Shown here one piece after another: positions 23,921 through 63,746 of a stretch of 64,000 bases of DNA. Both the position numbers and the translations under genes were made by a program. The DNA is from Acinetobacter phage Acj61. A model generated the notes under the pieces. The model worked only from the letters and a program-made list of their open reading frames with translations. It was not told the DNA's origin and did no database searches. The stretch lies in the sequence record GU911519.1. One strand, 5' to 3'. Within the stretch, counting starts at the first letter, position 1, and every line of letters begins with the position of its first letter.

Positions 23921-23982
23921 AATGTTTTACTCATTAATTGTTGATAGGACTATTATAACACAGTCCTATCTCGATGTAAACT

Positions 23983-24151
23983 GCTATAGCAACAATTCTG
24001 TTTCTAGAAGCACATCGCTATCGCTTTCAAAAACTGGCATCTGTTCTACATGCTGTAAGCATACACCAGGATGCACAGGACCATTTGCAGTTTCAACTAC
24101 TAACAAGTCATCAATAGGCTGCTTACACACAGCACAAATTTGCTTTTCCAT
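23983..24151 (-). CDS. possible small zinc-ribbon ORF (56 aa, below the track cutoff)
   Basis: An ATG with a GAGG RBS leads to MEKQICAVCKQPIDD...HPGVCLQH. It was found by manual translation only. Confidence 0.3.
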
Positions 24152-24316
24152 GATAATTCCTCTAAATTAATTTAACCAAGTCCATAACCATCTAATATCA
24201 TCTGAACACCTATCTATTCCGACCAAATAATAATGGGTGGATCTTAGCATTGATAGCATTGTATCATACAAATAAATACAGCATAGGCTCGCGAAAACCA
24301 AGTGTCTATTTTTTGA

Positions 24317-24715
24317 TCAAGCTAAGCCATTGCTAAGCTGTAACTTCAATGCTTCTAACGTGTCCGGGTTATCCAAAATGCTAAACCGTACGTCGACGAT
24401 AATTGTGTTAAGGTCATATTGTGGAATGACATTGACACCTAATCGCACGATTCGAGGCTCGTATGTTCTAACTGCAGCAGTGATACTCTTTTCAAGCGTG
24501 TTTGCTGTTAGAGGAGACAAGTTCTCAAATAATTGATCTGACATATCACAACCAAATTCTGGGTCAAAAGGTTTTGAACCTTTTCGTGTTGTGATAATCC
24601 CTAAAAGAGAGTTCTTGACAGCACGTGTGCCAACACTCTTTGCGACATCTCGGTTCCATGCCATTGACATTTCAGGCGAGATGTCTGTGTACATCTGATT
24701 GATTGATACGCTCAT
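24317..24715 (-). CDS. gp25: baseplate wedge protein gp25
   Basis: 132 aa, identical in length to T4 gp25. It lies adjacent to gp26 and is divergent from gp51, as in T4. Confidence 0.85.
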   Translation of the reverse strand: MSVSINQMYTDISPEMSMAWNRDVAKSVGTRAVKNSLLGIITTRKGSKPFDPEFGCDMSDQLFENLSPLTANTLEKSITAAVRTYEPRIVRLGVNVIPQYDLNTIIVDVRFSILDNPDTLEALKLQLSNGLA

Positions 24716-25359
24716 TATAAAATCCGAATGAATTCGCTAAAACCTTCAATGACGTGTACATGCTTCTTGCCGCATTTAGGACAAGTAATTGGCACCGCCA
24801 ACTGCACCTTTGGTGCTAATAAGAATTTTTTGATAGAATTAATATCATCAGGCGTAATAGCTTTGTGAATGTCATCGAGCTCGGATTCAGTCAATTCATC
24901 AACTGGAATTCGATCGTCGCCTACGTACGCAGCTTCAATTGCTTTAACGAGCATAAGAGGCACGTTGTCATCATCAAACAGTTCTGGCCAGTTGAATGAC
25001 AATTTAAAGTTCGGGAACGCATATAAATTTTCTGTGCTCTCGCCTTTGAAGTCAATACCTGCATGTGATAGATCGAGTTTGACTTGGAACTCGTGCTTAC
25101 ATTCACAGACATAATCCTGAAGAATTTCGTCTTGGTTGATGCTTCGTCCAATAAGATTAACGAGCAATAATTCTGCATCGTGTTTGGAAAGCTTAGAAGC
25201 ATTTGTGTATTTCTCGATAACTTCTCGAGACCATTTTTTGATCAAGTCTGAATTATCAGAGCCTCGTGACAGCAGCAATTTCACATAGTCTTCTAACGTG
25301 ATTGTTGTACACTCGACAGTTTGATCACTAAGTTTAACGCTAAATTTTGTTTCGTACAT
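24715..25359 (-). CDS. gp26: baseplate hub subunit gp26
   Basis: 214 aa from the ATG at 25359, versus 208 aa for T4 gp26. The track start at 25371 is a GTG. A late promoter on the minus strand lies at 25381-25388. Confidence 0.7.
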   Translation of the reverse strand: MYETKFSVKLSDQTVECTTITLEDYVKLLLSRGSDNSDLIKKWSREVIEKYTNASKLSKHDAELLLVNLIGRSINQDEILQDYVCECKHEFQVKLDLSHAGIDFKGESTENLYAFPNFKLSFNWPELFDDDNVPLMLVKAIEAAYVGDDRIPVDELTESELDDIHKAITPDDINSIKKFLLAPKVQLAVPITCPKCGKKHVHVIEGFSEFIRIL

Positions 25360-25380
25360 AATAGTCACCACTTTATTGAG

Positions 25381-25392
25381 TATTTATAAATA
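25381..25392. promoter_or_regulatory. palindromic divergent late promoters TATTTATAAATA: the minus-strand octamer (25381-25388) serves gp26/25 and the plus-strand octamer (25385-25392) serves gp51
   Basis: Two exact, overlapping TATAAATA octamers lie on opposite strands. Confidence 0.55.
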
Positions 25393-25412
25393 TTTTAAAC
25401 ACGGAGGCTTGT

Positions 25413-32101: not shown

Positions 32102-32126
32102 CAATTAAACATATTTGGAGAATATC

Positions 32127-34214
32127 ATGGATCAATTTGATCTTGAACAATTGAATGAAGTATTCGATGGCCCAGAAGACAATAATTATGACGTTGTAGA
32201 TTTAATGCCTAAAGCAAAAACGCCTCAAATGTTTTTGCTTAAAGGTGAAGGAATCCACAATCTAGTAGTTCGTTTGATGGCACAAAAAGAAGGTGGTGAT
32301 ACTCTTCGTAATTTGATGCCTAATGACAAGAACGTCGTTGTTTTCGTCATGACATTGAATGACAAAGGTAACCTTGGTGAGTTGAAAGGTGGACTTGGTG
32401 GAAATCCAGTTCGTGCTCTTGTAACTATCTTTGACACAGTTTATAAAGCAATCAATCCTACTGTTACACAAACAATCATGTTCCGATTCCCAGCCAAGAA
32501 AATGGGTGGTCAAGAACGATCAGTTCGTCGTGTACTTGAACGTTTGATTAAAGTTCGTGGTAAGAATCACTTTGCCGTACTTTCTGAACTTGCAAATTAT
32601 TCAGCAAAATATTCATATGTTGTAGCTCACAAACGCAACATGGAATATACCGATTTGCCAGGCGCATCTGTTGACACAGAAAAATTTAAGAAAGTAGATA
32701 CTAAAGTTGGTGACGTTTATATCGATAACGACACAGGAAAAGAAACTACCTTGGCTAATGCCGTTGCTGGAGAAATAGCTAAAAAGTATGACAAGATCAC
32801 AACTGCGTCGGTTATTTCAAAAACTAAGTTGAGTCGTAAAGTTTTGATGGGTGCTATGTACTCAGCTGAAGTATTCAATACTAAACGTAATTCTGAGAAT
32901 CAAGAGCTGTTTGATAATTTCTCGGATAGCAACTCAGTTCATGAATCGACTGGTACAAAGTCGCCGATTCAAAAGGACATCAATACCATCGATATGCCTG
33001 CTCTCGGCAAATACTTAGAAGACTTCCAAGTCAAAGGCTGGAAAACTTCGGACTCGGTTTCACAAATGCATACTTTCAAACTTAAAGATGCTATTGAAGG
33101 TATCGCTAAGAGCAAATTAGCATTTAAACCAGGTGGAAAGGACAGTGCAGCAATTACTAACACATTGATTAATGGAGTTGGTGCTATTATTTCTAAGGCT
33201 AGCCCGAAGAACTTACAAGCAGCAATCGTTGAAATTTCTGAGTTAGTTTCTCGTACGGACTTTGGCGAAATGGAAAAGTGGGAACGTATTTCTATAACAC
33301 GAACAATCATTGCAGCAGTTCTTAACGGTCCTGTTGGAAATCGAATTCGTGAAGCATACACATCAGATGCATCAAAAAAGGAAACTTACTACCAATATCC
33401 TAAAGAGCAGATTGAAGCTATCGAAACATATACAGGTTATCGATATGAGAACATCAACAATTTCTTGATTGGACTCGACGAGAAGCTCCACCCCGAAGAT
33501 TTGAAGACTATTCGGAATCTTGATGAAGCATTCAAAAATGGTTCAACATTGGAAAAGGGCACAGTTCTTTATCGTGGTCAAAAGATGAAGATCGATCAAG
33601 TACGCCCTATGCTTGACAACAAAGTACTTTATTTCAAGAACTTTGTTTCAACATCATTGCAGCCGGTGATTTATTCACAATTTGCAAATAGTACTCCAAA
33701 CATCGAACCTGGTGCTCAGGACCAGACCGATTTCACGTCTGCTGATTTAGCTCAATCTACATCATTTGATGATGGTGATAAAGAACGAATTGAAGACAAC
33801 GATTCACGAGTATCTGTTGATTGTGGTATTGTAATCAAAGGTGCTGATAAAATCAACGTTATTATTCCAGGTGCTGTTTCATCATATCCAATGGAATGTG
33901 AAGTAATTCTTCCTCGTGGTACAGCTCTCAAAATCACTAAAGCATTAGGTGAACGAGCCGATGGAAGTTCTGAAGGTACTATGTTGCTTGAAACAAATGT
34001 CATTTCAGCCGATCAACTTGATGAAAGCACTGACGTTTATGATGGTGACACATTCTTGACTGAAGGACGTCTCGAAAAGATCAATCCATTTAGTTTCTCT
34101 GCGTTCTACAACAACGAGGTTATAAGTGAAGCGATAATTCCTGATGATAGTTCTGCCGCAGAGTTATTGTTAGCCATTATTGATTTAAGTGATCTATCAA
34201 ACAAGTTTAAGTGA
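32127..34214 (+). CDS. alt: Alt, packaged mono-ADP-ribosyltransferase
   Basis: 695 aa from the ATG at 32127, versus 682 aa for T4 Alt. The track start at 32115 is a TTG. The C-terminal ART core carries YRGQKM and an ExE-type VILPRG...EGTMLLE, as in T4 Alt. Synteny is 54-alt-30. Confidence 0.8.
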   Translation: MDQFDLEQLNEVFDGPEDNNYDVVDLMPKAKTPQMFLLKGEGIHNLVVRLMAQKEGGDTLRNLMPNDKNVVVFVMTLNDKGNLGELKGGLGGNPVRALVTIFDTVYKAINPTVTQTIMFRFPAKKMGGQERSVRRVLERLIKVRGKNHFAVLSELANYSAKYSYVVAHKRNMEYTDLPGASVDTEKFKKVDTKVGDVYIDNDTGKETTLANAVAGEIAKKYDKITTASVISKTKLSRKVLMGAMYSAEVFNTKRNSENQELFDNFSDSNSVHESTGTKSPIQKDINTIDMPALGKYLEDFQVKGWKTSDSVSQMHTFKLKDAIEGIAKSKLAFKPGGKDSAAITNTLINGVGAIISKASPKNLQAAIVEISELVSRTDFGEMEKWERISITRTIIAAVLNGPVGNRIREAYTSDASKKETYYQYPKEQIEAIETYTGYRYENINNFLIGLDEKLHPEDLKTIRNLDEAFKNGSTLEKGTVLYRGQKMKIDQVRPMLDNKVLYFKNFVSTSLQPVIYSQFANSTPNIEPGAQDQTDFTSADLAQSTSFDDGDKERIEDNDSRVSVDCGIVIKGADKINVIIPGAVSSYPMECEVILPRGTALKITKALGERADGSSEGTMLLETNVISADQLDESTDVYDGDTFLTEGRLEKINPFSFSAFYNNEVISEAIIPDDSSAAELLLAIIDLSDLSNKFK

Positions 34215-34220
34215 TACACG

Positions 34221-34248
34221 AATGGGACTCAATTGAGTCCCATTTTTT
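34221..34248 (+). terminator. rho-independent terminator after alt
   Basis: The stem AATGGGACTCA at TGAGTCCCATT is followed by TTTTGG. Confidence 0.75.
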
Positions 34249-34429: not shown

Positions 34430-35893
34430 TTACACCTCTTGGAATACGAATTTAGCATCAGGGAATGCTTCTTCGAATGTGTTAGTTTCAGTTTTGTCAA
34501 TACGAAGTTTTTGGATGATTGGTAAGAATAAGCTTACGTTCGAAGTACGACCTTCTGCAGCAACCCATCCATTACATTTGATTTCTGCAATAGTACCAAT
34601 CAATTGATCTTTGATTGTCCATAAACGTTTGCGGTTCAATTCATCAAGTTCTTCAAATGGAATATCGATCCATTGTCCTTTAACTTTGATTTGATCTGTG
34701 TCTGTGAAGCCAGAACCACAACGTACTTTGATTTTTCCATCGTCTGACGCAAGAATCACTGCACCAAGTTTATTTTCATCTTTTGAATGGACTTGAACAT
34801 CGACAATACGTAGATCGACCATCAATTCTTCTTTGAACTTCACCAAGTTCTTAGAACGTTTGTTTTCCCAGATCGAATCGATATTTTTGAGGATGATACC
34901 TTCAAGACCTTGTTCAACATAATTTTTGTAGATATCCTTAGCTTCTTCAAGGTTGTTGACTAATGTGTTTTCGATTGTTAAGATTCGTGGAGAACCTTCA
35001 AACAATGATTCAAGTTGTTCAAAACGAACTTTGTATGAACTTGATTTTTCTGAATCATAAATCGCTGTAGTTGGAACCAAATCCCAAACTTGGAAGCTCA
35101 TGTATGCAGCTTCTTGCTGATTGATTGTACCTTTAAGAGATTTGTTTGCAATGCCGTTTGATTCAGAACGAAGAACTACTGCCTTTTGATCTTGTTCTCC
35201 CATCATCGTTTCAAGTGCAGTTTTTGGAGCAGATGGAGCGATGTAAACAAGTTCGCCATCAACCATTACTGAACCATGAACTTCACGATATGCTTTAGTA
35301 CGAGCAATCAATTCTTTTTTGAGGTTGTCGAGGCCTTTGTACTCATTACCTGCACGAGAGTACATTTTGACATCTTCGACGTCATCGCCATAAATTTCAG
35401 CGAAACAACGAGCTCCATCAGCTTTTAACTGCGCATACGCTGGGAATTTGATGAATGATAACGCCTTTTCTGAATATGAACTTGCAAGCATTTGAGGTTG
35501 TTTTGGAATCAAATCTTTCCAAACTTTGTTAGCCATAGTAGCTGAAGCACCACATTCAAGATCACGTTTGATGATTCGTTCAACGATAATTGCATCGGCT
35601 TGTGGAAGACCAGATAGATAATCAGCTAACATTGTAATTGCAGCATTGCCGGTTACTTTACGAGTAGCAATAACTTTTTCAAGTAAATGAAGAACTTCTT
35701 CCAGTGTACGTTCGGTATCAGAACCTTGAATATCGTATGCAGGAATCTTTTTGATACCATATTGGAGACGCGGATGATATGCTAAACGATATACGTCGAT
35801 CATATTGGTTCGATTAGCATTAAGTTTCAAAATTGCTAACTTTTCATTAGTAGAATCAGTTGCAGCAATTTTATTCAGAACTTCTAAAATCAT
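34430..35893 (-). CDS. gp30: ATP-dependent DNA ligase gp30
   Basis: 487 aa, identical in length to T4 ligase. MILEVLNKIA, the adenylation motif QLKADGARCFAE, ASNGIANKSLKGTI and LPIIQKLRIDKT align with T4 gp30. Confidence 0.95.
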   Translation of the reverse strand: MILEVLNKIAATDSTNEKLAILKLNANRTNMIDVYRLAYHPRLQYGIKKIPAYDIQGSDTERTLEEVLHLLEKVIATRKVTGNAAITMLADYLSGLPQADAIIVERIIKRDLECGASATMANKVWKDLIPKQPQMLASSYSEKALSFIKFPAYAQLKADGARCFAEIYGDDVEDVKMYSRAGNEYKGLDNLKKELIARTKAYREVHGSVMVDGELVYIAPSAPKTALETMMGEQDQKAVVLRSESNGIANKSLKGTINQQEAAYMSFQVWDLVPTTAIYDSEKSSSYKVRFEQLESLFEGSPRILTIENTLVNNLEEAKDIYKNYVEQGLEGIILKNIDSIWENKRSKNLVKFKEELMVDLRIVDVQVHSKDENKLGAVILASDDGKIKVRCGSGFTDTDQIKVKGQWIDIPFEELDELNRKRLWTIKDQLIGTIAEIKCNGWVAAEGRTSNVSLFLPIIQKLRIDKTETNTFEEAFPDAKFVFQEV

Positions 35894-35919
35894 GGAATAA
35901 TTCCTTTGTTTGATTTGAT

Positions 35920-35957
35920 AGGACCATTATATCATGGTCCCTTAGAGATGTAAACTG
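35920..35957 (-). promoter_or_regulatory. T4 early-type promoter for gp30: -35 GTTTAC (rc of 35950-35955) and -10 TATAAT inside the palindrome GGACCATgATATAATGGTCC
   Basis: Read on the minus strand: GTTTAC, then 18 nt, then TATAAT. The element is a member of a family repeated at least 8 times. Confidence 0.6.
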
Positions 35958-36733: not shown

Positions 36734-37207
36734 TCATACCATTTCCTTTAAATACAGTTCAAATTTAGAACGAACGTAGTTTAAAGCAAAAATAAATTCT
36801 TGCTCGGTTAAGATTGTATCAAATGGGTCACTTTTACCAATTGAATGAGTCAATGTGCTTCCTAATGATGCAGCCAGAGCTTGTTGGAATAACTCATTTT
36901 GTGCAAAACATTTTAGATACGCACGTGTGTACAGGCTGCGATAGTAGTCGCTATGCCGGTTGAAGGGCTGTCCTTTCCAATACAATGTTTGATCTTTAAT
37001 AACAATAGCTCGGCCCAGTTGTTTTGCTTCGATTCCGCTTTTAGAAAATAGAACCAATTGTTTTGCAGGGTCCTTTTCACGAAGTCCTTGCAAGAAGCCT
37101 TCAATTGATCCGAACACTACATCATCCATGATAAATGAGTTAGCCCATAAGTTCGAGAGAACATTAGCTGGGTATTGACCACGAGAATTAATATCAATTA
37201 CTTTCAT
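36734..37207 (-). CDS. NADAR (YbiA/DUF1768)-like protein, a putative ADP-ribose N-glycosidase/hydrolase
   Basis: 157 aa. Three segments match the three conserved NADAR blocks recalled from E. coli YbiA: LSNLWANSF versus FSNFAAWPI, SIEGFLQGLRE versus TSEHYFQAQKF, and ELFQQAL...TLTHSIGKSDP versus ELRELLL...LVEHTENDAYWG. Confidence 0.45.
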   Translation of the reverse strand: MKVIDINSRGQYPANVLSNLWANSFIMDDVVFGSIEGFLQGLREKDPAKQLVLFSKSGIEAKQLGRAIVIKDQTLYWKGQPFNRHSDYYRSLYTRAYLKCFAQNELFQQALAASLGSTLTHSIGKSDPFDTILTEQEFIFALNYVRSKFELYLKEMV

Positions 37208-37278
37208 ACTGATTTCCTCTTTAGTAGTTGATGGATTAATTATACCACAAAAGGCAGTCTAAGTAAACTGCCTTTTAA

Positions 37279-38693: not shown

Positions 38694-39228
38694 AATTGAT
38701 GATGTTTTCCCAATTCAGGGATGTGAGTTTTGATTTAGGCAATTGATGAACTTCAACGCCTGCATCAATAAGTTCTTGGTCCCAACCAGGTTGATTTCGG
38801 TCATACAATTCACTATACACAAGTTTCTTGATGCCGGTTTGAAGAATTGATTTCGCACATTCTCGACAAGGAGATAATGTGACATACATCGTTGCTCCAT
38901 CGATAGGAAGACCATTTTTTGCTGCGAATAAGATTGCATTCAATTCAGCATGAATTTCATGTGCTGACGACCAAGCGGAGTGAACTTCACGAAATTCGTT
39001 TTTCAAAACAACTTGATTCACATGAGGCGGCACCGGATTGTAACGCTGTTCAGTCCATCCTTGTTCATGAGCATGATCACAACAGTTCACTCCACCTTCA
39101 CGAGTACCATTATAGCCAGTCGAAATAATTCGGCCATTTTTAGCGATCACTGCTCCAACTTTCCATGATACGCATTTTGATTCTTGTGAAACAAGGTATG
39201 CGATTTGCATAAATGAACTTGGCTTCAT
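38674..39228 (-). CDS. cd: dCMP deaminase
   Basis: 184 aa. The zinc motifs HAELNAILFAA and PCRECAK are present. Long alignment with T4 Cd (AYLVSQESKC.SWKVGAVI.KNGRIISTGYNG...). Confidence 0.95.
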   Translation of the reverse strand: MKPSSFMQIAYLVSQESKCVSWKVGAVIAKNGRIISTGYNGTREGGVNCCDHAHEQGWTEQRYNPVPPHVNQVVLKNEFREVHSAWSSAHEIHAELNAILFAAKNGLPIDGATMYVTLSPCRECAKSILQTGIKKLVYSELYDRNQPGWDQELIDAGVEVHQLPKSKLTSLNWENIINFGGQHD

Positions 39229-39668: not shown

Positions 39669-39723
39669 TAGGTTATGTTGATAGGACTATTATAACATAG
39701 TCCTATCATGAAGTAAATAGCTG

Positions 39724-41531: not shown

Positions 41532-41554
41532 GTCTATACCTTCTTGGTAGATTT

Positions 41555-41595
41555 GATAGGACCATTATATCATAGTCCTATCATAAAGTAAACTA
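41555..41595 (-). promoter_or_regulatory. early-type promoter for pseT: GTTTAC (rc of 41588-41593), a spacer, then TATAAT within the palindrome GGACTATGATATAATGGTCC
   Basis: It belongs to the same repeated element family as the gp30 promoter. Confidence 0.55.
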
Positions 41596-42780: not shown

Positions 42781-42830
42781 ATATGATCATTATATAACGA
42801 ATAAATTAAAAGCAACAAATATTCGCTACG
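42781..42830 (-). promoter_or_regulatory. possible MotA-dependent middle promoter for rnlA: a MotA-box-like TTGCTTTTA about 14 nt upstream of TATATAAT on the minus strand
   Basis: The minus strand reads tgttGCTTTTAatttattcgtTATATAATgatc, about 30 nt upstream of the rnlA ATG. Confidence 0.35.
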
Positions 42831-48677: not shown

Positions 48678-48719
48678 TGATAGGACCATTATAACAAACA
48701 GTTCTAAGAAAGTAAACTG
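48678..48719 (-). promoter_or_regulatory. early-type promoter for frd: GTTTAC (rc of 48712-48717), about 17 nt, then TTATAAT
   Basis: It belongs to the same element family and lies 20-60 nt upstream of the frd ATG. Confidence 0.55.
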
Positions 48720-48721: not shown

Positions 48722-49210
48722 TTATGGCTTAAATTTATATGCATTTGTAACATCAATCAATTGCATCAGGATAGCACGAGGTTGGTCAGATTCTTCCAAA
48801 TTATCAGTGATAATCCGAGTACGGTTTCTGAAATCCTCATAATGATATGAATCGTCAGGGCCATCAGGAACTGAATGTGTCAGTCTCCACAGAAGACTTA
48901 AAAGGTCCCTATTGATATTCCATTTGGAAACAAGTTCAGTACCATCCTGACACTCCAGAATGACCTGCTTGAGTTCAAAGTCAACGACCACATTATAGTT
49001 ATTCATCAACCAGAGAGCCTTGGTGATGATCATATGTGACTCGACTTTATAATGATTACTATTTGACCATAGTCGTTCTAAGTACCACCACAAACCTTCT
49101 AACTGAGCATCATCAAAATGCTGTTTAAGATTTAAACAAGGTGCATCAAGTATGCCACCGCAGTTCTTAATCTCCTTTTGAAGTTTGAACAAATCATTTA
49201 TCTGTTTCAT
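48722..49210 (-). CDS. hypothetical Trp-rich protein
   Basis: 162 aa. It has its own promoter and hairpin cassette upstream. Confidence 0.45.
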   Translation of the reverse strand: MKQINDLFKLQKEIKNCGGILDAPCLNLKQHFDDAQLEGLWWYLERLWSNSNHYKVESHMIITKALWLMNNYNVVVDFELKQVILECQDGTELVSKWNINRDLLSLLWRLTHSVPDGPDDSYHYEDFRNRTRIITDNLEESDQPRAILMQLIDVTNAYKFKP

Positions 49211-49229
49211 TTTCTCACCTACACAAAAA

Positions 49230-49271
49230 GGGTATGATAAGATTATATCATACCCTTTTCAAATCGTAAAC
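49230..49271 (-). promoter_or_regulatory. combined gp32 terminator and early promoter: a 10-bp perfect hairpin GGGTATGATA/TATCATACCC with a T-run, whose loop and 3' arm contain the -10 TATAAT, with -35 GTTTAC at 49266-49271
   Basis: The minus strand reads GTTTAC gatttgaaaa GGGTATGATATAATCTTATCATACCC TTTTGTGT aggtgag ATG. Confidence 0.55.
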
Positions 49272-50190: not shown

Positions 50191-50338
50191 AATAATTTCC
50201 TTTGGAAGTTTTAAAAGATTTTGAAAGTTGTTTGATGTACGTTTCCGGTTACTACATTCAATTTGATGTACATCGATCAGAATGAATGTTTATTATATCA
50301 TAACAATTTTGAAGCAATCGTTATGATATTATTTATAC
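50191..50338 (-). promoter_or_regulatory. gp32 5' leader, a candidate translational autoregulatory operator
   Basis: A 148-nt untranslated leader ends in the A/U-rich unstructured tract AACUUUCAAAAUCUUUUAAAACUUCCAAAGGAAAUUAUU AUG, preceded by repeated GAUGUACAUC elements capable of pairing. Confidence 0.45.
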
Positions 50339-51537: not shown

Positions 51538-51613
51538 TTGAAGCTCCTCAATTAAATTAACTGGATTTGAATAAATTTGATAAGACCATTATATCACTTC
51601 CTTGTGATAGCAA

Positions 51614-52681: not shown

Positions 52682-52955
52682 GAACTCCGTTCGTTAATGT
52701 TGGTACCATTATATTATACTACGCATTAAGCAATAAATAAATACAAGATAATCGAATCTTTTGTGCACAGCACAAACTGCGCAGCAGACAGTCTATCTGA
52801 CCGAACAGATAAATTAGAGCGGATGAAGCAGCTGAAGCTATTATAACATATCAAAAATATTAAGCCCTAGCTTTGTCGGTTTGATCGATCAAATTTTAAT
52901 CACACACAGATACGATCACATTTAATAAATAGTTCATATACTAAAAGGAACTCAC

Positions 52956-55900
52956 ATGTCTGAATTAATCAAAACCAAATTCCGTGCATCATATGGTCTC
53001 GATGCAGCAGGTGAGAAAGTTGTAAACGTTGCATTGGCTGATCGTACAGTGATGACCGATGGCGTTAACGTTGCATATCTCATCCAAGAAAATACTCTTC
53101 AAAAGTATGACCCAACACGTTCATACCCAGAAGGATTTGCTGTCATCTACCAAAACCGTACATGGACAGCAGTACGTGATACGCCTAACCCAGCTGGCCC
53201 ATTCGATGAATTGTACTGGAAAGCTCTTCGTAGTGACCCAAAATGGATTCCAATCAATGCAGGTGTTCGTGCTTTAGAAGTAGGTAACTACATCGCAGTC
53301 GACACCGCTCCAGGCAACGATGTTGAACTAACACTCCCATCCAATGCACAAACAGGCGATACCATTGTTGTCAAAGATATTGGTGGTCGTACAGGTTATG
53401 CTTCAGTAATCATCAAAGCTGGTCAACAATCGATTATCGATCGTGGTAAGCAACTTCAACAAGCACAAATGACAGTTCCTTACTCAGAATATGTGTTTGT
53501 CTTCGTAAATCGTTTATGGCACTTATACAACGGCTCAGAAGCTGATGGTGTCAAATATGTCACTACAGCAGGTTTAGGTGAACTCCAAGCATCAGACGTA
53601 GTTGTTCGTCAATATGATCGCTTGCAGCCAATCAAAGTGCGTTTCCCTAAGTATGCTAATTCTGGTGACATTATCTATTTCATGGGTATGAATAACATCA
53701 ATGCTTTAGAACCATACTACCACTTAGAACTTGAAACTGCTGATGCTAACTCAAGTATCTTTGAACCGGGTGTGAAATCTCGAGTTATCTATCGTTCATT
53801 GAGTGGTTACTTCGTATTCGATTCTTCAACCAAAACTTGGATTCTATTTGACAGCGACACAACAGATCGTCTTCGTACCGTTTCAGGCGACACAAACTTG
53901 TTCCCGAACGAGACTGTTTCTGTAGTAGGCACAAATAACACAGACCCATCTTCATTGACTTTGACTCTTCCAAAGAATGTTGATGCTGGTGCTCAGATCA
54001 CAGTTGCATTGAATTATATGCGTCGTGGTCAAACTGTAAACATTGCTACACTTGCTCCTGACATGATCTTGACAAGTAAAGAATTGATGCAGTTCCCTAA
54101 ACGTTCAAAATATCCGCCAGAAGGCAACTGGGTCAACACAAATAAATTGACTTTCAACGGTGCTGCTGATTATCCACCAATCATCACATTCGCTTATATC
54201 CCTATGGGACCAGTAGGTGCTCCACCAGTTCTTGGTCAATGGATGGTTGTAGAAAACGTTCCACAGTTAGAACGTGTTGACCCATCAACTGATGCTACTC
54301 GTGCTCGTTTAGGTGTTATCGCATTAGCGACTCAAGACCAAGCAAACTTGAATCATGAAGACATCACTGATGCATCTCGTGAAATTGCTATCACACCAGA
54401 AACTTTAGCGAATCGTACAGCGAATAAAACTCGTCGCGGTATTGCTCGAATTTCAACTGATGCAGAGAATCAATATCCAACTAATGACTCACGTTATTTA
54501 GACGATGTTATTGTAACTCCAAAAATGTTGAATAACAAGCAAGCTACTGAAATCATGCGTGGTATTGCTGAAATCGCTGATCAAGGTGAAGCGAATGGTT
54601 CAACTGATGATGCACGAATCATCACAGCTAAGAAATTAGATGCTCGACGTGCTAACCCTGACATGGCTGGTGTAGCTCCGGTTGTACGTGCAGGCGGTGC
54701 ACCTGTAACAGGCACAGGTAAGACTCGTGATGATAAAGGTACATTGATTTATGATTTTGATGACTACTCAAATATCGTAACTCCAAAAACTCTTCGTGAA
54801 TACATTGCTACCACATTATCTCTTGGTTCTGTGTACATTGCTACAAATGCCGAAGTTATCGCTGGAACAGCTACAGATGCTAAGCATCCTATCGTTGTTA
54901 CACCTGCTGATTTGCATTCAAAAACTGCTACAGAAGCTCGAATTGGTTTCTCTGAAATTGCTACACAAGATGAAACGAATGCTGGTACCGATGACTTCCG
55001 ATTCATCACTCCAAGGAAACTTGCTGGACGTGGTTCATCAGAAACAATGACAGGCGTCGTTCGAATTGCTACACAAGGTGAATTCGATGCAGGTGTTCTT
55101 GACAACGTATTCAGTTCTCCATTGAAAGTTAAGACTCATTTTAACTCAACTGCACGTACAACTGTTGATCAAACTTCTGGTCTTCGTGAATCTGGTACAT
55201 TATGGGGACAATATTCTCTTAATATCCTTCAATCAACTGAAGCTCAACGTGGTTCATTACGAGTTGCTTCACAAGCATTGACTGATGCAGGTGTTGATGA
55301 CCTGACCGCTGTGACTCCTAAAAAGTTACAAGCTAAGAAAGCGACAGAAGCTGTTGAAGGTATTGTACAAATCGCTGATAACGCTGTTACTGCAGCTGGT
55401 GCATCAAACAGCCGTGCTGTGAGTCCACAAAGTCTCAAATACGTGATGCAAGATCATATTGACTGGGAAGCTACTACAACTCGTCGTGGTACAGTTAAGA
55501 TGACTGAAGGCGCATTGACTTGGTCAGGTAACGATACACAGGGTAACACAAAACCTGTCGATCAGTTCTTCAAGTCAGGTTATGCAATTTCACCATTTGA
55601 ATTCATCTCAACATTGTCTCATTACTTGCCTATCAAAGGTAAAGCATTTGATTCTGATTTGTTAGATGGAATTGACAGTACTCAATTCATTCGTCGTGAT
55701 ATTGATCAAGTTGTTGATGGAGCTTTGACTCTTAATAAGACATTGACTACTAAGAATGTAGTTGCTAGTGGTAACTCTACAGTTACAATAGGCACAACTG
55801 GTTCTGGTGTATTAAATGACGATCAAGATAAATTGTTATTGACTCCGCCTACTCACACAGCAGGTCCTTGGAAATTTGCTATCAACGATGGCGCATTAAG

Positions 55901-56810
55901 TACTTTGAAAATCAAGTATGGTGCAACAGCAACTCCGGTTGAATTTGGTTCTGAAGGCGATACAAAATTCAATGGCAATGTAACCATTAGCAAAGCGTTA
56001 AATGTTGGAACTACATTAACTGTAACAAACAACATCAACACAGCTTCTGGGTTATATGCAATCAACAGCAAACCTGTTGTTCAAATCGCATCTAACGTAT
56101 CAACGTTTGGCGACACATCCATTTCTACTTCTATTCGGAGCTCAGATGCTAATGCTATAACTGCGGTCGATGGAACTGGTGGATATGTTATTGTAACATC
56201 AAAGAATATGCAGACTCAATTGAATCCACTTTACGTTCGACGTGATGGGTCAACAATGAGTGGTCGTTTGACAAGTACAGCACCTTCTGTATTTGCTATC
56301 CCGCAAACTTCTGCTGCTATTCGTGATCCGCTGGATGCCTCAAACTTTGGTACATGGACTACTGAGATCACAACAGACACACTCTACAAGCAATTACCGG
56401 GGTATGTCGTTCCAGTTCCAGACTTGAACAATGATACTGGTGAGCCAACAGGCTTCATCAAAGAGTACAAAGAATTTGCAGGTCCTGGTACTCTGTCTCA
56501 ATTCGGTTCAAGCGCTTCAAATGGTTCCGGTACATATCAAATGTGGGCTCCACGTCCAACAGTTACGACTGATAACCACCAAGCTCAGACATTCTACATG
56601 CGTTCTTGGAACACAGTTAAAGGTCAATTTGATGGATGGGGACGAGTGTATACTTCGAACAACCCACCAACAGCAAATGAAATTGGTGCTATGTCTGATA
56701 ATGGTTCAATCTTCTCTTCATTGAAGATTCGTGATTGGATTCAAATCGGTAATGTACGCATCTATGCTGACCCATTATCTCGTTCAGTTAAATTTGACTG
56801 GATTGATTAA
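52956..56810 (+). CDS. gp34: long tail fibre proximal subunit gp34
   Basis: 1284 aa, versus 1289 aa for T4 gp34. It contains eight or more reiterated (V/I)TP(K/E)xLxx(K/R)xAT...G(I/V)xxIAT repeats, shared with gp12. Confidence 0.9.
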   Translation: MSELIKTKFRASYGLDAAGEKVVNVALADRTVMTDGVNVAYLIQENTLQKYDPTRSYPEGFAVIYQNRTWTAVRDTPNPAGPFDELYWKALRSDPKWIPINAGVRALEVGNYIAVDTAPGNDVELTLPSNAQTGDTIVVKDIGGRTGYASVIIKAGQQSIIDRGKQLQQAQMTVPYSEYVFVFVNRLWHLYNGSEADGVKYVTTAGLGELQASDVVVRQYDRLQPIKVRFPKYANSGDIIYFMGMNNINALEPYYHLELETADANSSIFEPGVKSRVIYRSLSGYFVFDSSTKTWILFDSDTTDRLRTVSGDTNLFPNETVSVVGTNNTDPSSLTLTLPKNVDAGAQITVALNYMRRGQTVNIATLAPDMILTSKELMQFPKRSKYPPEGNWVNTNKLTFNGAADYPPIITFAYIPMGPVGAPPVLGQWMVVENVPQLERVDPSTDATRARLGVIALATQDQANLNHEDITDASREIAITPETLANRTANKTRRGIARISTDAENQYPTNDSRYLDDVIVTPKMLNNKQATEIMRGIAEIADQGEANGSTDDARIITAKKLDARRANPDMAGVAPVVRAGGAPVTGTGKTRDDKGTLIYDFDDYSNIVTPKTLREYIATTLSLGSVYIATNAEVIAGTATDAKHPIVVTPADLHSKTATEARIGFSEIATQDETNAGTDDFRFITPRKLAGRGSSETMTGVVRIATQGEFDAGVLDNVFSSPLKVKTHFNSTARTTVDQTSGLRESGTLWGQYSLNILQSTEAQRGSLRVASQALTDAGVDDLTAVTPKKLQAKKATEAVEGIVQIADNAVTAAGASNSRAVSPQSLKYVMQDHIDWEATTTRRGTVKMTEGALTWSGNDTQGNTKPVDQFFKSGYAISPFEFISTLSHYLPIKGKAFDSDLLDGIDSTQFIRRDIDQVVDGALTLNKTLTTKNVVASGNSTVTIGTTGSGVLNDDQDKLLLTPPTHTAGPWKFAINDGALSTLKIKYGATATPVEFGSEGDTKFNGNVTISKALNVGTTLTVTNNINTASGLYAINSKPVVQIASNVSTFGDTSISTSIRSSDANAITAVDGTGGYVIVTSKNMQTQLNPLYVRRDGSTMSGRLTSTAPSVFAIPQTSAAIRDPLDASNFGTWTTEITTDTLYKQLPGYVVPVPDLNNDTGEPTGFIKEYKEFAGPGTLSQFGSSASNGSGTYQMWAPRPTVTTDNHQAQTFYMRSWNTVKGQFDGWGRVYTSNNPPTANEIGAMSDNGSIFSSLKIRDWIQIGNVRIYADPLSRSVKFDWID

Positions 56811-58733: not shown

Positions 58734-61700
58734 ATGGCTTTAGACCCAAACATCGGAAGAATTAAGTTTCTTCGTACAAAGACTATCGGTCGCAAACCGA
58801 CTACAAATGACATCCAAGAAGGCGAATTAGCTCTTAACCTTACTGATCGCACAATTTTTTCTCGTAGCGGCGATAATATTGTCGATCTTGGGTTTGGACG
58901 TGGCGGTAAAATTGAAGGTTCTATTACTGCTACTGGTGATATAACTTCGAATAATGCTAACTTCACTCGTGTGTATTCGACTAATTACTATTCACCAAAC
59001 AATTTCAAATTCTACACACCAAATAATGGTGCGCAGAATATTGTTGCAGGCGGCATAGGTGTCATGGGTGAGTATGCTAACGAAGGCAAGATTCCGGGTA
59101 ACGGCATCTACTCACAAGGACAAATCAAAAGTGATTCGTCTGTAACTGCTCCTTCATTTGTTGGCGAATTGACAGGCAACTCTGCAACTACATCAAAATT
59201 GAAAAATGCTGTTCGAATCAATAGTGTTCTTTTTGATGGTACTACAAACATCACAACTCCGGGTTATATCAACGTGATTGCTGATGACAATCTCACTATT
59301 CGTCCATCGCAATTGACTCCAGGCTCGTTAGGTGTTTATTTTGCTTCTATTGCTGGTCTAAATGGCGTAGCTGATAGTAATTTTGCAGACGTTTTAGCGA
59401 TCAACACATATAAAGACAATACAGGCGGCCTGTTGTCAGGTTTAGCATTCCCGAAAACAGGTCTACAAAACCCTATCCATTATCGCACAGATTATGGTTC
59501 AGCTACATGGGGCACAGGACGTCGTTTAGCATATCTCGATGATGACTCAACTGGTAACTCAGCAACAGCGTCTCGTTTGAATAAAACTACACGAATCGCG
59601 ACAGTTCAAGCGGTGACTTGGTATCGTTTAGGTAAAGTCACAATTCCACAAAACGGGCGTACTCTTGCTATTCGAATGTATGGCGGTGTCGGATACAATG
59701 GCTTGTCAAATCAATCCGCAGCAGCAACAGTCATTTTCAAAACTGGTAATGCTAACCCTGTTAACGCTGGCGTCGCTATGGACGTTCTCGACGGTACTTC
59801 AATTCCAGGACAAGTTGGGTTGCTTAAACTCGATGATAGCAACTATGAAATCTTTGTTCAATTTGGCGGATATTCAACATTCAACTGTGTAGTTGAAGAA
59901 GAAGAAGGTACAACGTGGACTTGGCAGTATGCTTCATATGCGACACTTCCTGCTGGCTTCCAAGCAGGTACAGTACGTGTTTTAGCACAAACTACAAGTA
60001 ACGTTTCATCTGCTACTCGCCTTCAGACTCCACGCACAATCAACGGTGTTAGCTTTAACGGTACTTCTGATATTACTATTGCGGATAATACTAAATTACC
60101 GTTAACTGGTGGTACTTTAACTGGCGGTTTAACTGCACCTAATCTTACGGTTACTGGTAGTACAAAATCTACTACGATTAATGCTAGTGGAATGGGTAAT
60201 TATTCCCCATCAGAGCAGGGCGCATACCTTTCATGGAATAGAAATAATGGATCGGGTAAAACTGACTTTATTAATAATAGAGGTGGTGGTCCAGGCGGTT
60301 TTGATTGGTGGAATGGAAACGAAAGTAGTTACACCCAGGTAATGACTCTAGACCAAAGCGGAGTATTATCAACTATAGGTGGTTTTAACGGTAATGCTAC
60401 TACTGCTACTAGTCTACAAACTGCAAGAACTATTAATGGCGTAGCATTTAACGGTACAGCAAATATCACTATTGCAGATTCCACAAAGTTACCAACGGCA
60501 GGCGGCACAGTTACAGGTGCATTGGCGGTTAATGGACTGCTGACGGCAAATGGTGGATTCAAAGGACATTATGTAGCAACTGACAACCGCGCTTTAGTGC
60601 CAAGTGCAACACCTAAAGGTGCGATTGGCGCCTATTTCACCTCGCAAGGTGGACTGACGGGCGCAGCCAATGCAGCCTATGGCGACCTGTTGATGTTGAA
60701 CTCCTACCATGACACATCAGGCGGCAATGCAAATGCTTTGTTCTTCTCCAAAGGTGGCAAGTCAATCTTTCACTACCAAGCATCGCAAGATGCAACAAGT
60801 TGGGGAGCCGCAAGTCAGCTTGCCTATGTGACCGACAATGTGGCTTCTGCAACCAAGTTAGCCACAGCCCGCACGATCAACGGTGTTAGCTTTGACGGTA
60901 CATCCAATATTACTATTGCGGATAGTACTAAATTACCGTTAACTGGCGGCACAATTACAGGCAGTTTAAATGTAAGCGATACAATCACTATTACAAATGT
61001 AGGTGATCAGGCAGGTGCATTTAAGAAACTTATTCAAGCTGATACTACTACGGATGGTGGATATCTTGCAGTAGGTAATAATGCTGCAGATAGAGGCTAC
61101 GTTGAAATCGGCACTATTGATGATGCGGATGCAGAGATTTATGCTTCGCAGCGAACTAGTGCAAATGCTGTAATACGTAGAGCAAAATTATTAGATGGTG
61201 CTGGTAATACAAGCTTTCCGGGCAACCTATCTGCTAACTCTTTGGGTGTAAACAACACCTCAAACTCAAGTGGTTTAGGTGTTTCGCTTTACGATGGTGC
61301 GACTGGTGGAATGCCTAGTTACGGTCTTGCGTTCTCAGGTACAGCAACCTTTGGTACGCATGGGGGTGTAGTTGGAGATTGGGCAACATACTTCACTATG
61401 AGCGGCGCGACAAACCGAGGGTGGATTTTCAAATCAGGTAATACAGCCGGAGGAAATGTTGCGTCTATATCAGCATCTGGCGTGATTACTGCACCTCAAT
61501 TTGTGGGCAATTTATCGGGAAATGCTGATACTGCGTCTAACGCTGTTGGTGTAGGTCAAAGCTGGTATGTTTATACTGCACCTACACGTGAGCAAAATAC
61601 CTTATACACTAATACAACAGGTAGAACCATCACGGTTTCTATTTCTTTGGTTGCTATGGGTAACTATACAATGACTGTTGATATCAACGGCACAGCTATG

Positions 61701-61838
61701 CAGGAACATGCGGTTAACACAAGCTCGAATAACGGCGGAATATTATATTTCCAAGTTCCACCAGGTCAAACGTACAAAGTTTATTTCACTAGAGCATCTA
61801 ATGCAACACCTTTTCTGAAATGGGCAGAACTTAGATAA
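58734..61838 (+). CDS. gp37: long tail fibre distal subunit gp37 (receptor-recognising)
   Basis: 1034 aa, versus 1026 aa for T4 gp37. It contains three ~40-aa repeats ATxLxTxRTINGVxFxGTxxITIADxTKLPxxGGTxTG. The C-terminal ~100 aa form a compact tip. No gene 38 follows. Confidence 0.9.
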   Translation: MALDPNIGRIKFLRTKTIGRKPTTNDIQEGELALNLTDRTIFSRSGDNIVDLGFGRGGKIEGSITATGDITSNNANFTRVYSTNYYSPNNFKFYTPNNGAQNIVAGGIGVMGEYANEGKIPGNGIYSQGQIKSDSSVTAPSFVGELTGNSATTSKLKNAVRINSVLFDGTTNITTPGYINVIADDNLTIRPSQLTPGSLGVYFASIAGLNGVADSNFADVLAINTYKDNTGGLLSGLAFPKTGLQNPIHYRTDYGSATWGTGRRLAYLDDDSTGNSATASRLNKTTRIATVQAVTWYRLGKVTIPQNGRTLAIRMYGGVGYNGLSNQSAAATVIFKTGNANPVNAGVAMDVLDGTSIPGQVGLLKLDDSNYEIFVQFGGYSTFNCVVEEEEGTTWTWQYASYATLPAGFQAGTVRVLAQTTSNVSSATRLQTPRTINGVSFNGTSDITIADNTKLPLTGGTLTGGLTAPNLTVTGSTKSTTINASGMGNYSPSEQGAYLSWNRNNGSGKTDFINNRGGGPGGFDWWNGNESSYTQVMTLDQSGVLSTIGGFNGNATTATSLQTARTINGVAFNGTANITIADSTKLPTAGGTVTGALAVNGLLTANGGFKGHYVATDNRALVPSATPKGAIGAYFTSQGGLTGAANAAYGDLLMLNSYHDTSGGNANALFFSKGGKSIFHYQASQDATSWGAASQLAYVTDNVASATKLATARTINGVSFDGTSNITIADSTKLPLTGGTITGSLNVSDTITITNVGDQAGAFKKLIQADTTTDGGYLAVGNNAADRGYVEIGTIDDADAEIYASQRTSANAVIRRAKLLDGAGNTSFPGNLSANSLGVNNTSNSSGLGVSLYDGATGGMPSYGLAFSGTATFGTHGGVVGDWATYFTMSGATNRGWIFKSGNTAGGNVASISASGVITAPQFVGNLSGNADTASNAVGVGQSWYVYTAPTREQNTLYTNTTGRTITVSISLVAMGNYTMTVDINGTAMQEHAVNTSSNNGGILYFQVPPGQTYKVYFTRASNATPFLKWAELR

Positions 61839-61845
61839 ATGTGGT

Positions 61846-61893
61846 AATCGTGTATCATTCATTATAAATATTTTTTTTAAATGATACACGATT
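61846..61893 (+). promoter_or_regulatory. 14-bp perfect inverted repeat AATCGTGTATCATT/AATGATACACGATT whose 20-nt loop carries a late promoter TATAAATA (61863-61870), directly 3' of gp37
   Basis: The structure was read directly. It begins 8 nt after the gp37 stop. Confidence 0.5.
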
Positions 61894-61936
61894 AAAAATT
61901 AAAATGAATACTCAAGACAACAAACAACTAACACGA

Positions 61937-61963
61937 ACGGGGCTCAATTGAGTCCCGTTTTTC
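61937..61963 (+). terminator. rho-independent terminator ACGGGGCTCA at TGAGTCCCGT + TTTTT
   Basis: The stem has 10 bp and 2 unpaired nucleotides in the loop and is followed by a T-run. Confidence 0.7.
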
Positions 61964-61964
61964 G

Positions 61965-61972
61965 TATAAATA
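61965..61972 (+). promoter_or_regulatory. late promoter TATAAATA for the holin t
   Basis: An exact octamer lies immediately after the terminator. Confidence 0.55.
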
Positions 61973-62037
61973 TTATCATAAGTCATAAGACTGTAACTAC
62001 CAAGTTAATCCTATCAACGCTACAAAAGTATATAACG

Positions 62038-62718
62038 ATGAGCACTGATAATAACCAAACACCAGAACAGAAAAACACAGGGATTCCAGTCTTCGACTTT
62101 ATCTTCGGACTCCTTGATCGTATTTTCAAAGACAACGCTACTGGTAAAATTTTAGCGTCACGTGTCGTCGTTCTAATTGTTTTATTCGCAATGGGTATCA
62201 TTTGGACCAAAGGTGACCAATATTTGGCACTGTATAAAGAGTCGAGATACGAGACCTACGCAGCTATAATGCAAAAAGATAAAGACGCACGATTCGAAAC
62301 TGTAGCATTAGAACAACTACAAATTGTTCACGTTTCAAGCGGAGCAGACTTTTCAGCTGTGTACTCTTTCCGCCCAAAGAACTTTAACTATTTTGTAGAT
62401 TTGATCGCGTATGAAGGACAACTACCCGCATCTGTTGACCCGAAGAACCTAGGCGGGTTCCCTATTGATAAGACTTCAAACGAATATAGTAAACATTTAT
62501 CTGGCTCTTCTTTCAGTAGTGAAAATGAGTTCAAATATTTGCCGACTACTGATCATGAAGTTGGAGTGAAGTACATGTACTCATGCCCGTATTTCAACAT
62601 GGACAATGTCTATTCAGGAACAGTCGCAATGTACTGGTTTTCGAAGCCAGTACATTCTGAAGAAAAATTAAGTGCGATCTGTGGTCAAGCGGTGAGGGCG
62701 TTAGGAAGAGCTCGTTAA
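62038..62718 (+). CDS. t: holin T
   Basis: 226 aa from the ATG at 62038, versus 218 aa for T4 T. FGLLDRIFKDNATGKILASRVVVLIVLFAMGIIW...YKESRYETY...RFETVALEQLQIVHVSSGADFSAVYSFRPKN...YMYSCPYFNMDNVYSGT aligns with T4 holin nearly residue by residue. The track N-terminal extension is rejected. Confidence 0.95.
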   Translation: MSTDNNQTPEQKNTGIPVFDFIFGLLDRIFKDNATGKILASRVVVLIVLFAMGIIWTKGDQYLALYKESRYETYAAIMQKDKDARFETVALEQLQIVHVSSGADFSAVYSFRPKNFNYFVDLIAYEGQLPASVDPKNLGGFPIDKTSNEYSKHLSGSSFSSENEFKYLPTTDHEVGVKYMYSCPYFNMDNVYSGTVAMYWFSKPVHSEEKLSAICGQAVRALGRAR

Positions 62719-62993
62719 GCAGTTTTGACAGTATTGGTGTACATGGCCAATTTGCGATAGATTGGTTCATGTCCCATGTTGAATTCTTCGATCAATTGTT
62801 TCTTCTGAGAAGTAGTGATTTCTTGAGTCAACATGTAAAGATTTGCTGAAGTAACTTTCTTGCCTTGGATTGTGATCTCAAGTTCGTTGAGATATGCAAT
62901 GAACAAGTTGTGGTTTTCAAGAATGTCATCAAAACCGAATTTGATTAAGATTGAAGCAACGGCAATGATTTCAGCTAAAGTATTGAATAACAT
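62715..62993 (-). CDS. asiA: anti-sigma70 factor AsiA
   Basis: 92 aa, versus 90 aa for T4 AsiA. IIAVASILIKFGFDDILENHNLFIAYLNE and YRKLAMYTN align with T4 AsiA IITVASILIKFSREDIVENRANFIAFLNE and YRYLEMYTN. Confidence 0.9.
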   Translation of the reverse strand: MLFNTLAEIIAVASILIKFGFDDILENHNLFIAYLNELEITIQGKKVTSANLYMLTQEITTSQKKQLIEEFNMGHEPIYRKLAMYTNTVKTA

Positions 62994-63023
62994 AATAAGG
63001 ATTCCTTTAAAATTGAGTTAGAG

Positions 63024-63665
63024 TTAAGCGGTTTCGATTAATGCATCGATGATGTTGACAATGTTGTCTTCAGTACATTCGATATCGAAATAAGTTTGAG
63101 CAGGTGTTTGTCGATATTTCATGCCAATTGATGCAAGTTTCTCGACAACTTTATCAGATGGTTTTCTACCAACTACTCGTACTTCGCCTTTGTTTTTGAT
63201 TTCGAGTGCTCCAACTGAAGAGATTCGTTTAGCAAATAAGATTAAAAAATTGCTTCGATCTACGACAGTGTTCTTCACTTCGATTTTGTCTGTTAAATAT
63301 TCGAGTGCAAAATCTTTGAACGCTTCCATACATTCATGAATTTCTCGTTTCTTACGAGTACCTTTAGCTTCAAGAAGTTCTGGTCGTTCTGATTCAACCC
63401 AAGCTTTTGCTGCAGCTTCGATTGCATCATCACCTTCAGGCGTTGTCAAGAATTTGTCTACAGAGATTTCAACCAGGTTTAACGCTGAGTTCTGCATCTT
63501 AGTTAGAGATGATATAACATCAATAACATCAGATTCGATGATATCTGCAATCATCTGAGGAGTCTGAAATGACTGTTTGTACAACTCTTTCAGAATTTTG
63601 TAATCCAATTCGACAAGTTGACCTTTATCTCCAAGGATTTGATTTAAGTAATCAATCTGCTTCAT
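63024..63665 (-). CDS. motA: middle-transcription activator MotA
   Basis: 213 aa, versus 211 aa for T4 MotA. It is adjacent to asiA as in T4. The N-terminal domain architecture and the C-terminal double-wing region are conserved at the pattern level. Confidence 0.75.
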   Translation of the reverse strand: MKQIDYLNQILGDKGQLVELDYKILKELYKQSFQTPQMIADIIESDVIDVISSLTKMQNSALNLVEISVDKFLTTPEGDDAIEAAAKAWVESERPELLEAKGTRKKREIHECMEAFKDFALEYLTDKIEVKNTVVDRSNFLILFAKRISSVGALEIKNKGEVRVVGRKPSDKVVEKLASIGMKYRQTPAQTYFDIECTEDNIVNIIDALIETA

Positions 63666-63746
63666 AATAATTTATCCATATTTGATTTGATAAGACTATA
63701 ATAACACAAGTCAAAGCGTTTGTAAACCGTTACATACCACAAAAAG

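Follow-up and report, generated by a model that had tools for sequence, protein, structure and literature searches.

A 64,000-nucleotide stretch of the genome of Acinetobacter phage Acj61 (GU911519.1), referred to here as the window, carries a repeated promoter element in front of minus-strand genes, and in many copies the -10 box lies inside a palindrome. The question raised by this locus is what the palindrome does. The phage is T4-like, with a major capsid protein ~80% identical to that of RB69 and its relatives. The repeats are probably cassettes of the PeSL type, a sigma-70-like early promoter joined to a stem-loop, with the stem-loop half acting on read-through transcripts.

The repeat family was defined by motif and repeat searches. 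There are seven exact matches to GTTTAC-N15-21-TATAAT, all on the minus strand, compared to 0.03 expected, and none of 100 shuffles reached seven. The element TATAAT-R-GTCCTATCA has 13 matches at <=3 mismatches with 1.09 expected. D1, the top-ranked and largest of the direct-repeat families from 23 to 64 kb, consists of seven 47-nt copies (23939, 35913, 37226, 39676, 41551, 48675 and 63685), and families D3 and D4 contribute further copies at 49242 and 51572. The consensus aligned on the -10 box is gcaGTTTAC(w)t...gataGGACTaTGnTATAATrGTCCTATCAA. These results confirm the repeated element of the original prediction at a frequency far beyond chance. Its minus-strand orientation was borne out in a scan of both strands, and no credible copy of the early promoter element was found on the plus strand of the window.

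Eight copies were classified as early promoters and are named by the -10 coordinate (23952, 35926, 37239, 39689, 41564, 48688, 49242 and 63698). The same eight sites are the top matches of an independent promoter scan. The gap between GTTTAC and TATAAT is 18 nt in all eight (equivalent to TTTACN-N17-TATAAT), and the range of 17-19 nt proposed earlier did not hold. TGn precedes the -10 box in 8/8. The nine copies listed previously were each said to read GTTTAC...TATAAT, which overstates their uniformity; the -35 is ATTTAC at 39689, the -10 is TATTAT at 63698, and the copies at 51588 and 52708 have no GTTTAC. That list also missed the early promoter at 37239-37268 and two MotA-type promoters (42789 and 50292). 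The stop codon of the upstream open reading frame (ORF) lies 2-11 nt before the -35 in 7/8 promoters (2 nt at 23952) and a start codon follows ~20-50 nt beyond all eight, so that the promoter takes up practically the whole intergenic gap. Positions -61 to -37 fall within the coding sequence that precedes the promoter and have an AT content of 0.56-0.84 (mean ~0.70) compared to 0.60 for the whole window.

The genes behind the early promoters encode ligase, Pnk, Frd and MotA (PHROG) plus small ORFs, and are orthologues of T4 early genes. The ORFs behind 39689 and 49242 have no PHROG family, and those behind 23952 and 37239 are of unknown function. The -35, spacing, extended -10 and -10 are the same as in T4 early promoters (UP / GTTTAC / TGn / TATAAT), and the sites carry no MotA box. 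Conserved positions beyond the hexamers are also shared with T4-type early promoters, including the C-rich positions -3 to -1 described for RB69, RB49 and 44RR (Hinton 2010, PMC2988021; Nolan 2006, PMC1524935). As judged from sequence, the eight sites are T4-type sigma-70 early promoters; we infer the early timing, and transcription would start at the A of ATCAA. The earlier assignment of the whole repeat family to a sigma-70 early set stands for these eight sites, and the copies upstream of dsbA and rnh leave the set as MotA-box middle promoters. A perfect GTTTAC-N17-TATAAT at 54013-54041 on the minus strand lies antisense within the plus-strand late tail-fibre ORF 52956-56810, whose near-identical counterpart in contig L267 carries a gp34 Pfam domain. 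This site has no downstream minus-strand gene, TGn, GTCCTATCA element or hairpin, and might be fortuitous or act as an antisense promoter.

The palindrome was analyzed by folding positions -30 to +8 and comparing the result with 500 shuffles of the spacer alone. A significant hairpin encloses the -10 box in five of the eight early promoters (23952, 35926, 39689, 41564 and 49242; 0-2/500 shuffles as stable). The energies of the five hairpins are -13 to -18 kcal/mol as RNA; folds with DNA parameters are significant at -6 to -10 kcal/mol. The remaining three promoters have a hairpin over the -35 (37239), a hairpin upstream of the -35 (63698) or none (48688). The palindrome had been attributed to every copy of the repeat, and this holds at the five promoters with a significant fold and fails at 48688, 63698, 51588 and 52708. 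In the GATAGGAC copies the arms span ~-26 to -15 and -8 to +4 around a 6-nt loop, and the centre of symmetry is at ~-11.5. The arms at 49242 are unrelated in sequence to those of the GATAGGAC copies.

A T-run follows the stem at 49242, at 37239 and in the terminator upstream of 63698, and is absent at 23952, 35926, 39689 and 41564. Only the T-run copies look like intrinsic terminators in their sequence. The original prediction that the 49242 copy doubles as the gp32 terminator is in agreement with these data, in that one hairpin is common to the promoter and to a terminator-like stem-loop with a T-run that comes immediately after gp32. The 49242 promoter is conserved in relatives that are 96-99% identical, the 41564 cassette is conserved in contig L275, and the 39689 copy has G for A at -6 in 97%-identical relatives, which converts a T-A pair to T.G. 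An Rfam search at gathering thresholds gave no match in the window.

A class of elements with this architecture has been published. PeSLs were described in T4-type phages as a sigma-70-like early promoter plus a stem-loop, with five subclasses by stem-loop position, the commonest having the stem-loop overlapping the -10 or between the boxes; G-T pairs are drawn in the stems, one stem-loop had terminator activity, and recombination between copies was reported (Arbiol 2010, PMC2839356). The class was later extended to T4/PST (TTTACW...TAYWAT, stems often AGNA-loop-TCNT) and KVP40/nt-1 (Comeau 2014, PMC4122927). Further traits of the class are an AT-rich tract ahead of the -35 and a preference for hyperplastic regions and ORFans. 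The window cassettes fit the structural definition of a PeSL by their sequence features: sigma-70-like boxes ~17 bp apart, a stem-loop beside or over the promoter (7/8) and an intergenic position between a stop codon and the Shine-Dalgarno/start. They resemble the published elements in having an early promoter and stem-loop in a short stop-to-start gap, in occurring in many copies in early regions, in placing the stem-loop over the -10, over the -35 or upstream (all three in the window), in tolerating G-T pairs and in flanking ORFans in some cases. The RB49/phi1 PeSLs differ in having polyG/polyC stems, whereas the window stems use the discriminator/start region of the promoter (GTCCTATC) as the 3' arm. 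The window elements further differ in that most stems have no T-run, the -35 box has the T4-type sequence GTTTAC, one arm sequence recurs in Acinetobacter phages, E. coli phages and the window phage, and no recombination between copies was seen in the window comparison. The promoter plus stem-loop arrangement is thus already known as a published class since 2010, and is no new kind of element. Modestly new are the conservation of one specific promoter hairpin across genera and the evidence that pairing on the sense strand is selected.

The distribution of the hairpin promoter was determined in other phages. The 46-nt consensus occurs in 348 phage records at 1,310 places, in E. coli, Shigella and Acinetobacter T4-like phages and in Aeromonas phages. 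Phage G53, the one member of the E. coli/Shigella group that was checked, is a Mosigvirus, and the GATAGGAC...GTCCTATC promoter is found both in T4-like phages of Acinetobacter and in Mosigviruses of E. coli. Among 603 unique GTTTAC-type sites in the retrieved phage DNA, 24 have -10-spanning stems scoring at least 10, compared to 0.95 after spacer shuffling. Many other GTTTAC-type sites have a terminator hairpin around the -35 with a T-run in the spacer. In the first 50 kb of T4, the -10 is inside a hairpin at 2/13 candidate early sites, upstream of dmd (20588, GTTTACaagctGACAAGACTAtggtatagTAGTCTTGTC) and of motB (7191, GTTTACaaactcttGGGACCAgagtataaTGGTCCC). The original prediction placed the palindrome outside the T4 consensus. 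The descriptions of that consensus that were consulted mention no palindrome (Hinton 2010, PMC2988021; Nolan 2006, PMC1524935), in contrast to the window, where more than half of the early promoters have one; the view that it is foreign to T4 needs correcting because T4 has its own early promoters with the -10 in a palindrome.

Hairpins of unrelated sequence occupy the equivalent position at the 49242 promoter and in numerous metagenomic phages. An unrelated hairpin at position 19287 of the more distant T4-like contig L153 (GTTTACaACCCATTATGatttgtgCATAATGGGTttattcttttt) has the -10 in its 3' arm followed by a T-run. The sequence TATAAT-RGTCCTATCAA is also present after GTGTAC-type -35 boxes in short, unrelated-looking environmental contigs (L001, L002, L010, L024 and others), so conservation of the discriminator/start sequence extends far outside this phage group. 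A text search of the literature for GTCCTATCA, GATAGGAC, TATAATGGTCC and TATAATAGTCC returned only primers and unrelated matches.

Covariation between the arms was used to assess selection for pairing. Family members were chosen by the right arm alone, and a matching left arm is present in ~40% of them. Where present, the left arm tracks the right (GATAGGAC/GTCCTATC, GATAAGAC/GTCTTATC, ATGAGAC/GTCTCAT and ATGAGGT/GCCTCAT; GACAAGAC/GTCTTGTC in T4), and four different complementary arm pairs occur in one Acinetobacter-phage genome (L014, L201 and L210, which come from one contig). The distance from GGAC to GTCC ranges from 12 to 17 nt between copies, for example in contig L029. RNAalifold analysis of 18 hairpin-bearing members gave 11 pairs, 6 with compensatory changes. 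Changes on both sides numbered 21 cells compared to 6.7 in shuffles (0/500, pair count), with a sharp collapse when the partners were slid by 1-3 columns. One-sided changes at the inner pairs were 11 G.U and 0 A.C, and the sense RNA is more stable than the antisense in 18/20 hairpins with a mean difference of 2.8 kcal/mol. A wider deduplicated set gave 17 G.T and 7 A.C (p ~0.03-0.05). Because the arm changes are compensatory, the arm register shifts and the one-sided changes are sense-strand G.U, the comparison favours selection for a hairpin on the mRNA-sense strand over a sequence-specific dimeric operator. The original prediction offered an operator or an RNA structure for the palindrome; the RNA structure is favoured and the operator is disfavoured. 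These data extend the PeSL papers with evidence that the stem-loop is selected for pairing, and on the mRNA-sense strand. They also show one hairpin-bearing promoter shared between Acinetobacter and E. coli T4-like phages with compensatory arm changes.

A mechanism consistent with these results starts with a T4-type early promoter read by the host sigma-70 RNA polymerase and packed into a short intergenic gap. Each cassette consists of GCA-GTTTAC, an 18-nt spacer ending in TGn, TATAAT and the conserved discriminator/start region RGTCCTATCAA. In 5/8 promoters the spacer (~-26 to -15) has become complementary to the -8 to +4 segment. Since that segment is constrained by promoter function and the spacer is complementary to it, read-through RNA from the upstream gene would fold into a stem that encloses the -10, with 8-12 bp and a 6-nt loop (14 bp at 49242). 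A transcript starting at the promoter itself would be missing the 5' arm and could not fold. The stem-loop could thus act, most likely on upstream transcripts, in attenuation, in termination or as a protective 3' hairpin. Knowing the role of the hairpin would help to explain how adjacent transcription units are insulated from each other in tightly packed early operons. A literature search for T4 transcript-end maps, which would cover the 3' ends at T4's own hairpins, found none.

Several observations count against this reading of the cassettes. The ~60% of promoters with the same right arm and no left arm indicate that the hairpin is dispensable for promoter function. Four of the five -10 hairpins are without a T-run and thus are not canonical intrinsic terminators. 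The covariation set was picked for Watson-Crick stems and its members are related, so the statistics are inflated and the p-values generous. The sense-strand bias fits RNA and the non-template DNA strand equally. Finally, the recombination role proposed for PeSLs found no support, as no cassette-bounded insertion or deletion was present among eleven metagenomic relatives (90-99% identical; ~27 kb of the window compared), a small sample that covers ~30.5-60.1 kb of the window with gaps.

Action at the DNA level is unlikely, although it accounts for part of the data. The palindrome would form a cruciform or single-strand hairpin that tunes promoter opening with supercoiling, or would be a recombination hot spot for the mini-circle/modular shuffling proposed for PeSLs. 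Its centre on the AT-rich -10 and the significant DNA-parameter folds are compatible with this explanation, as is the G.T bias, which suits the non-template strand as well as RNA. Crossovers have been mapped inside PeSLs, including in the loop of a stem-loop (Arbiol 2010, PMC2839356). In the window, the slot between gp32 and frd is occupied by an ORFan with a cassette on either side; this ORFan has no homologue in more distant relatives, where the slot is variable. However, 8-12-bp arms around a 6-nt loop are of marginal size for extruding a cruciform, and homologous recombination between repeats works without a palindrome. The lack of cassette-bounded insertions or deletions among the 90-99% identical relatives also argues against recombination; the changes that do occur there are an exchange of the td allele and a GIY-YIG insertion, neither with cassettes at its borders. 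Coliphage N4 virion RNA polymerase promoters are DNA hairpins with short stems and a 3-nt loop that are read by a phage-encoded virion enzyme. The likeness, an early promoter with an inverted repeat whose centre is near -12, is an analogy only, as the window promoters are ordinary sigma-70 promoters, and to our knowledge an N4-type virion RNA polymerase is not expected in a T4-like phage.

Somewhat less probable again is a palindrome with no function of its own, inherited with an ancestral cassette that multiplied through duplication or gene conversion and whose left arm is slowly decaying. The degenerate left arms at 48688 and 63698 look like decayed copies, and copies within a genome have details in common that are peculiar to it (ACTATG in the window, ACTATTG in Acinetobacter phages and TATAGT in Mosigvirus G53). 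Decay does not account for compensatory double changes by which pairing is maintained in phages from different host genera, for the hairpins of unrelated sequence at the same place or for the ~25-fold enrichment of -10-spanning stems over shuffles.

An operator, at which a dimeric phage or host DNA-binding protein on both arms across the -10 shuts early promoters off, is very improbable. A protein bound at the ~-11.5 symmetry centre would block RNA polymerase, and the palindrome is found at early promoters and at 0/4 middle promoters. An operator would also be a candidate for the shutdown of T4-like early promoters, the mechanism of which two reviews call not understood. An operator predicts the same half-sites at fixed spacing in all regulated promoters. 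Instead, the palindrome is present in just 5/8 early promoters here and 2/13 candidate sites in the first 50 kb of T4, the left arm is missing in 3/8 early promoters, the arms differ within single genomes and are unrelated at 49242, the GGAC-GTCC distance varies, and a sense-strand G.U mismatch bias is not produced by a duplex-binding protein. It is equally doubtful that the -10-centred hairpin is a switch on promoter DNA, extruded or captured by a structure-specific phage factor that turns a subset of early promoters off; such a switch, if real, bears on how T4-like phages shut early promoters down. Use of the GGACC/GGTCC arms as GGWCC restriction sites was dropped because most arms read GGACT/AGTCC, and a bidirectional promoter was ruled out by an opposite strand with no -35 and the wrong spacing.

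Four minus-strand sites of a different type complete the promoter map (Table 1). TGCTT or TGCTA lies 14-15 nt upstream of TATAAT at 51588, 52708, 50292 and 42789, and both motA and asiA are encoded in the window (PHROG). The two genes adjoin on the minus strand (asiA, the anti-sigma factor gene, at 62715-62993 and motA at 63024-63665) behind the 63698 promoter. At orthologous places in T4, the middle promoters PdsbA and P32 have been mapped. The MotA boxes, the motA and asiA genes and this placement match the T4 MotA/AsiA middle promoters, and by these features the dsbA and rnh copies are MotA-dependent middle promoters outside the early class. The middle promoters differ from the early family in that they are not GTTTAC repeats, and the same 500-shuffle fold test gave no significant hairpin at any of the four. 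The 51588 promoter is the only one of them that shares the downstream element of the early family, which indicates that the element belongs to the -10/discriminator/start module and not to the early class specifically. The outcome is a clean map of eight early and four middle promoters for a T4-like phage lineage seen in wastewater metagenomes.

Table 1. Early and middle promoters of the window (all on the minus strand; window coordinates). The -35 is GTTTAC and the -10 TATAAT unless given. Fold: RNA energy in kcal/mol, with the number of spacer shuffles as stable.
Promoter	Span	-35 or MotA box	-10	Stem-loop or other element	Fold	Downstream gene
23952, early cassette	23942..23981	23976-23981	23952-23957	hairpin GATAGGACTGT / ATAGTCCTATC, 23943-23970, one G.T pair; putative +1 ~23945	-16.9; 0/500	ORF 23603-23920
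35926, early cassette	35919..35955	35950-35955	35926-35931	hairpin GGGACCAT / ATGGTCC, 35920-35941	-13.1; 0/500	DNA ligase gp30, 34430-35893 (PHROG)
37239, early (family D1)	37232..37276	37263-37268	37239-37244	terminator-type hairpin AAAAGGCAGT..ACTGCCTTTT, 37249-37276, encloses -35; T-run in spacer (terminator scan)		ORF 36734-37207
39689, early cassette	39679..39718	ATTTAC 39713-39718	39689-39694	hairpin, perfect 12-bp arms TGATAGGACTAT / ATAGTCCTATCA, 39679-39708	-17.8; 0/500	ORFan 39225-39668
41564, early cassette	41554..41593	41588-41593	41564-41569	hairpin 41554-41583, one T.G pair	-17.5; 0/500	polynucleotide kinase pseT, 40608-41531 (PHROG)
48688, early	48678..48717	48712-48717	48688-48693	right-arm element GGTCCTATCA intact; left arm degenerate (TAGAACTGT)	not significant; 53/500	frd (PHROG)
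49242, early	49221..49271	49266-49271	49242-49247	hairpin AAAAGGGTATGATA / TATCATACCCTTTT, 49226-49259, then T-run; terminator-like, just downstream of gp32 (PHROG)	-16.7; 0/500	ORFan 48722-49210
63698, early	63688..63766	63722-63727	TATTAT 63698-63703	no hairpin around -10; downstream element AGTCTTATCAA; predicted intrinsic terminator AAAAAGGGACCaattGGTCCCTTTTT, 63741-63766, just upstream of -35		motA (PHROG)
51588, MotA-box middle	51578..51612	TGCTA 51608-51612, 14 nt from -10	51588-51593	downstream element GGTCTTATCAA retained		dsbA
52708, MotA-box middle	52698..52732	TGCTT 52728-52732	52708-52713	no GTTTAC, no hairpin		rnh
50292, MotA-box middle	50292..50316			outside repeat family		gene 32
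42789, MotA-box middle	42789..42814					RNA ligase gene, 41605-42762

Other inverted and direct repeats were noted in the window. Two 32-nt bidirectional terminator-like hairpins (ACACGAATGGGACTCAATTGAGTCCCATTTTT) at 34216-34247 and 61931-61962 are 91% identical to each other, and each follows the end of a long plus-strand ORF at a distance of up to ~100 nt (ORFs 32115-34214 and 58734-61838). A palindrome at 61845-61894 has 25-nt arms with no spacer (TAATCGTGTATCATTCATTATAAAT / ATTTTTTTTAAATGATACACGATTA) and overlaps a late-promoter-like TATAAATA at 61863. The plus-strand ORF 58734-61838 (1034 aa) contains three diverged ~103-nt direct repeats at 60033-60972 with nested 25-nt repeats (families D2 and D6), which suggest a repeated protein domain.

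The relatives used for comparison came from metagenomes. A megablast search of 50,697 phage records with 15 kb of the window (35-50 kb) gave no closely related sequence (coverage <=11%); metagenomic contigs 90-99% identical to the window do exist, including one wastewater assembly and a 163-kb contig (ERZ15232922 NODE_14, 163,481 bp). A neighbourhood search with gp32 found 3 distant loci only, with few of these promoters. Exact-protein look-ups with ORFs 39724-40050 and 40420-40608 gave no match, and the start codons used probably differed.

The 96-99% identical relatives L268, L269, L271 and L274 differ chiefly in the thymidylate synthase gene td (46965-47918 in the window). The window td DNA is 84% identical to td of Acinetobacter phage Ac42. 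The td genes of L268 and L271 do not align with the window td, encode 310 aa compared to 317 and have breakpoints at the gene ends; those of L269 and L274 are shorter at 293 aa. A GIY-YIG homing-endonuclease gene lies between td and the DUF4326 gene in L273 (6546-7280) and L274 (6272-7072), and L268, L269 and L271 have an extra 56-aa ORF between the two genes. The same interval in the window is a 143-bp gap only (~46822-46964).

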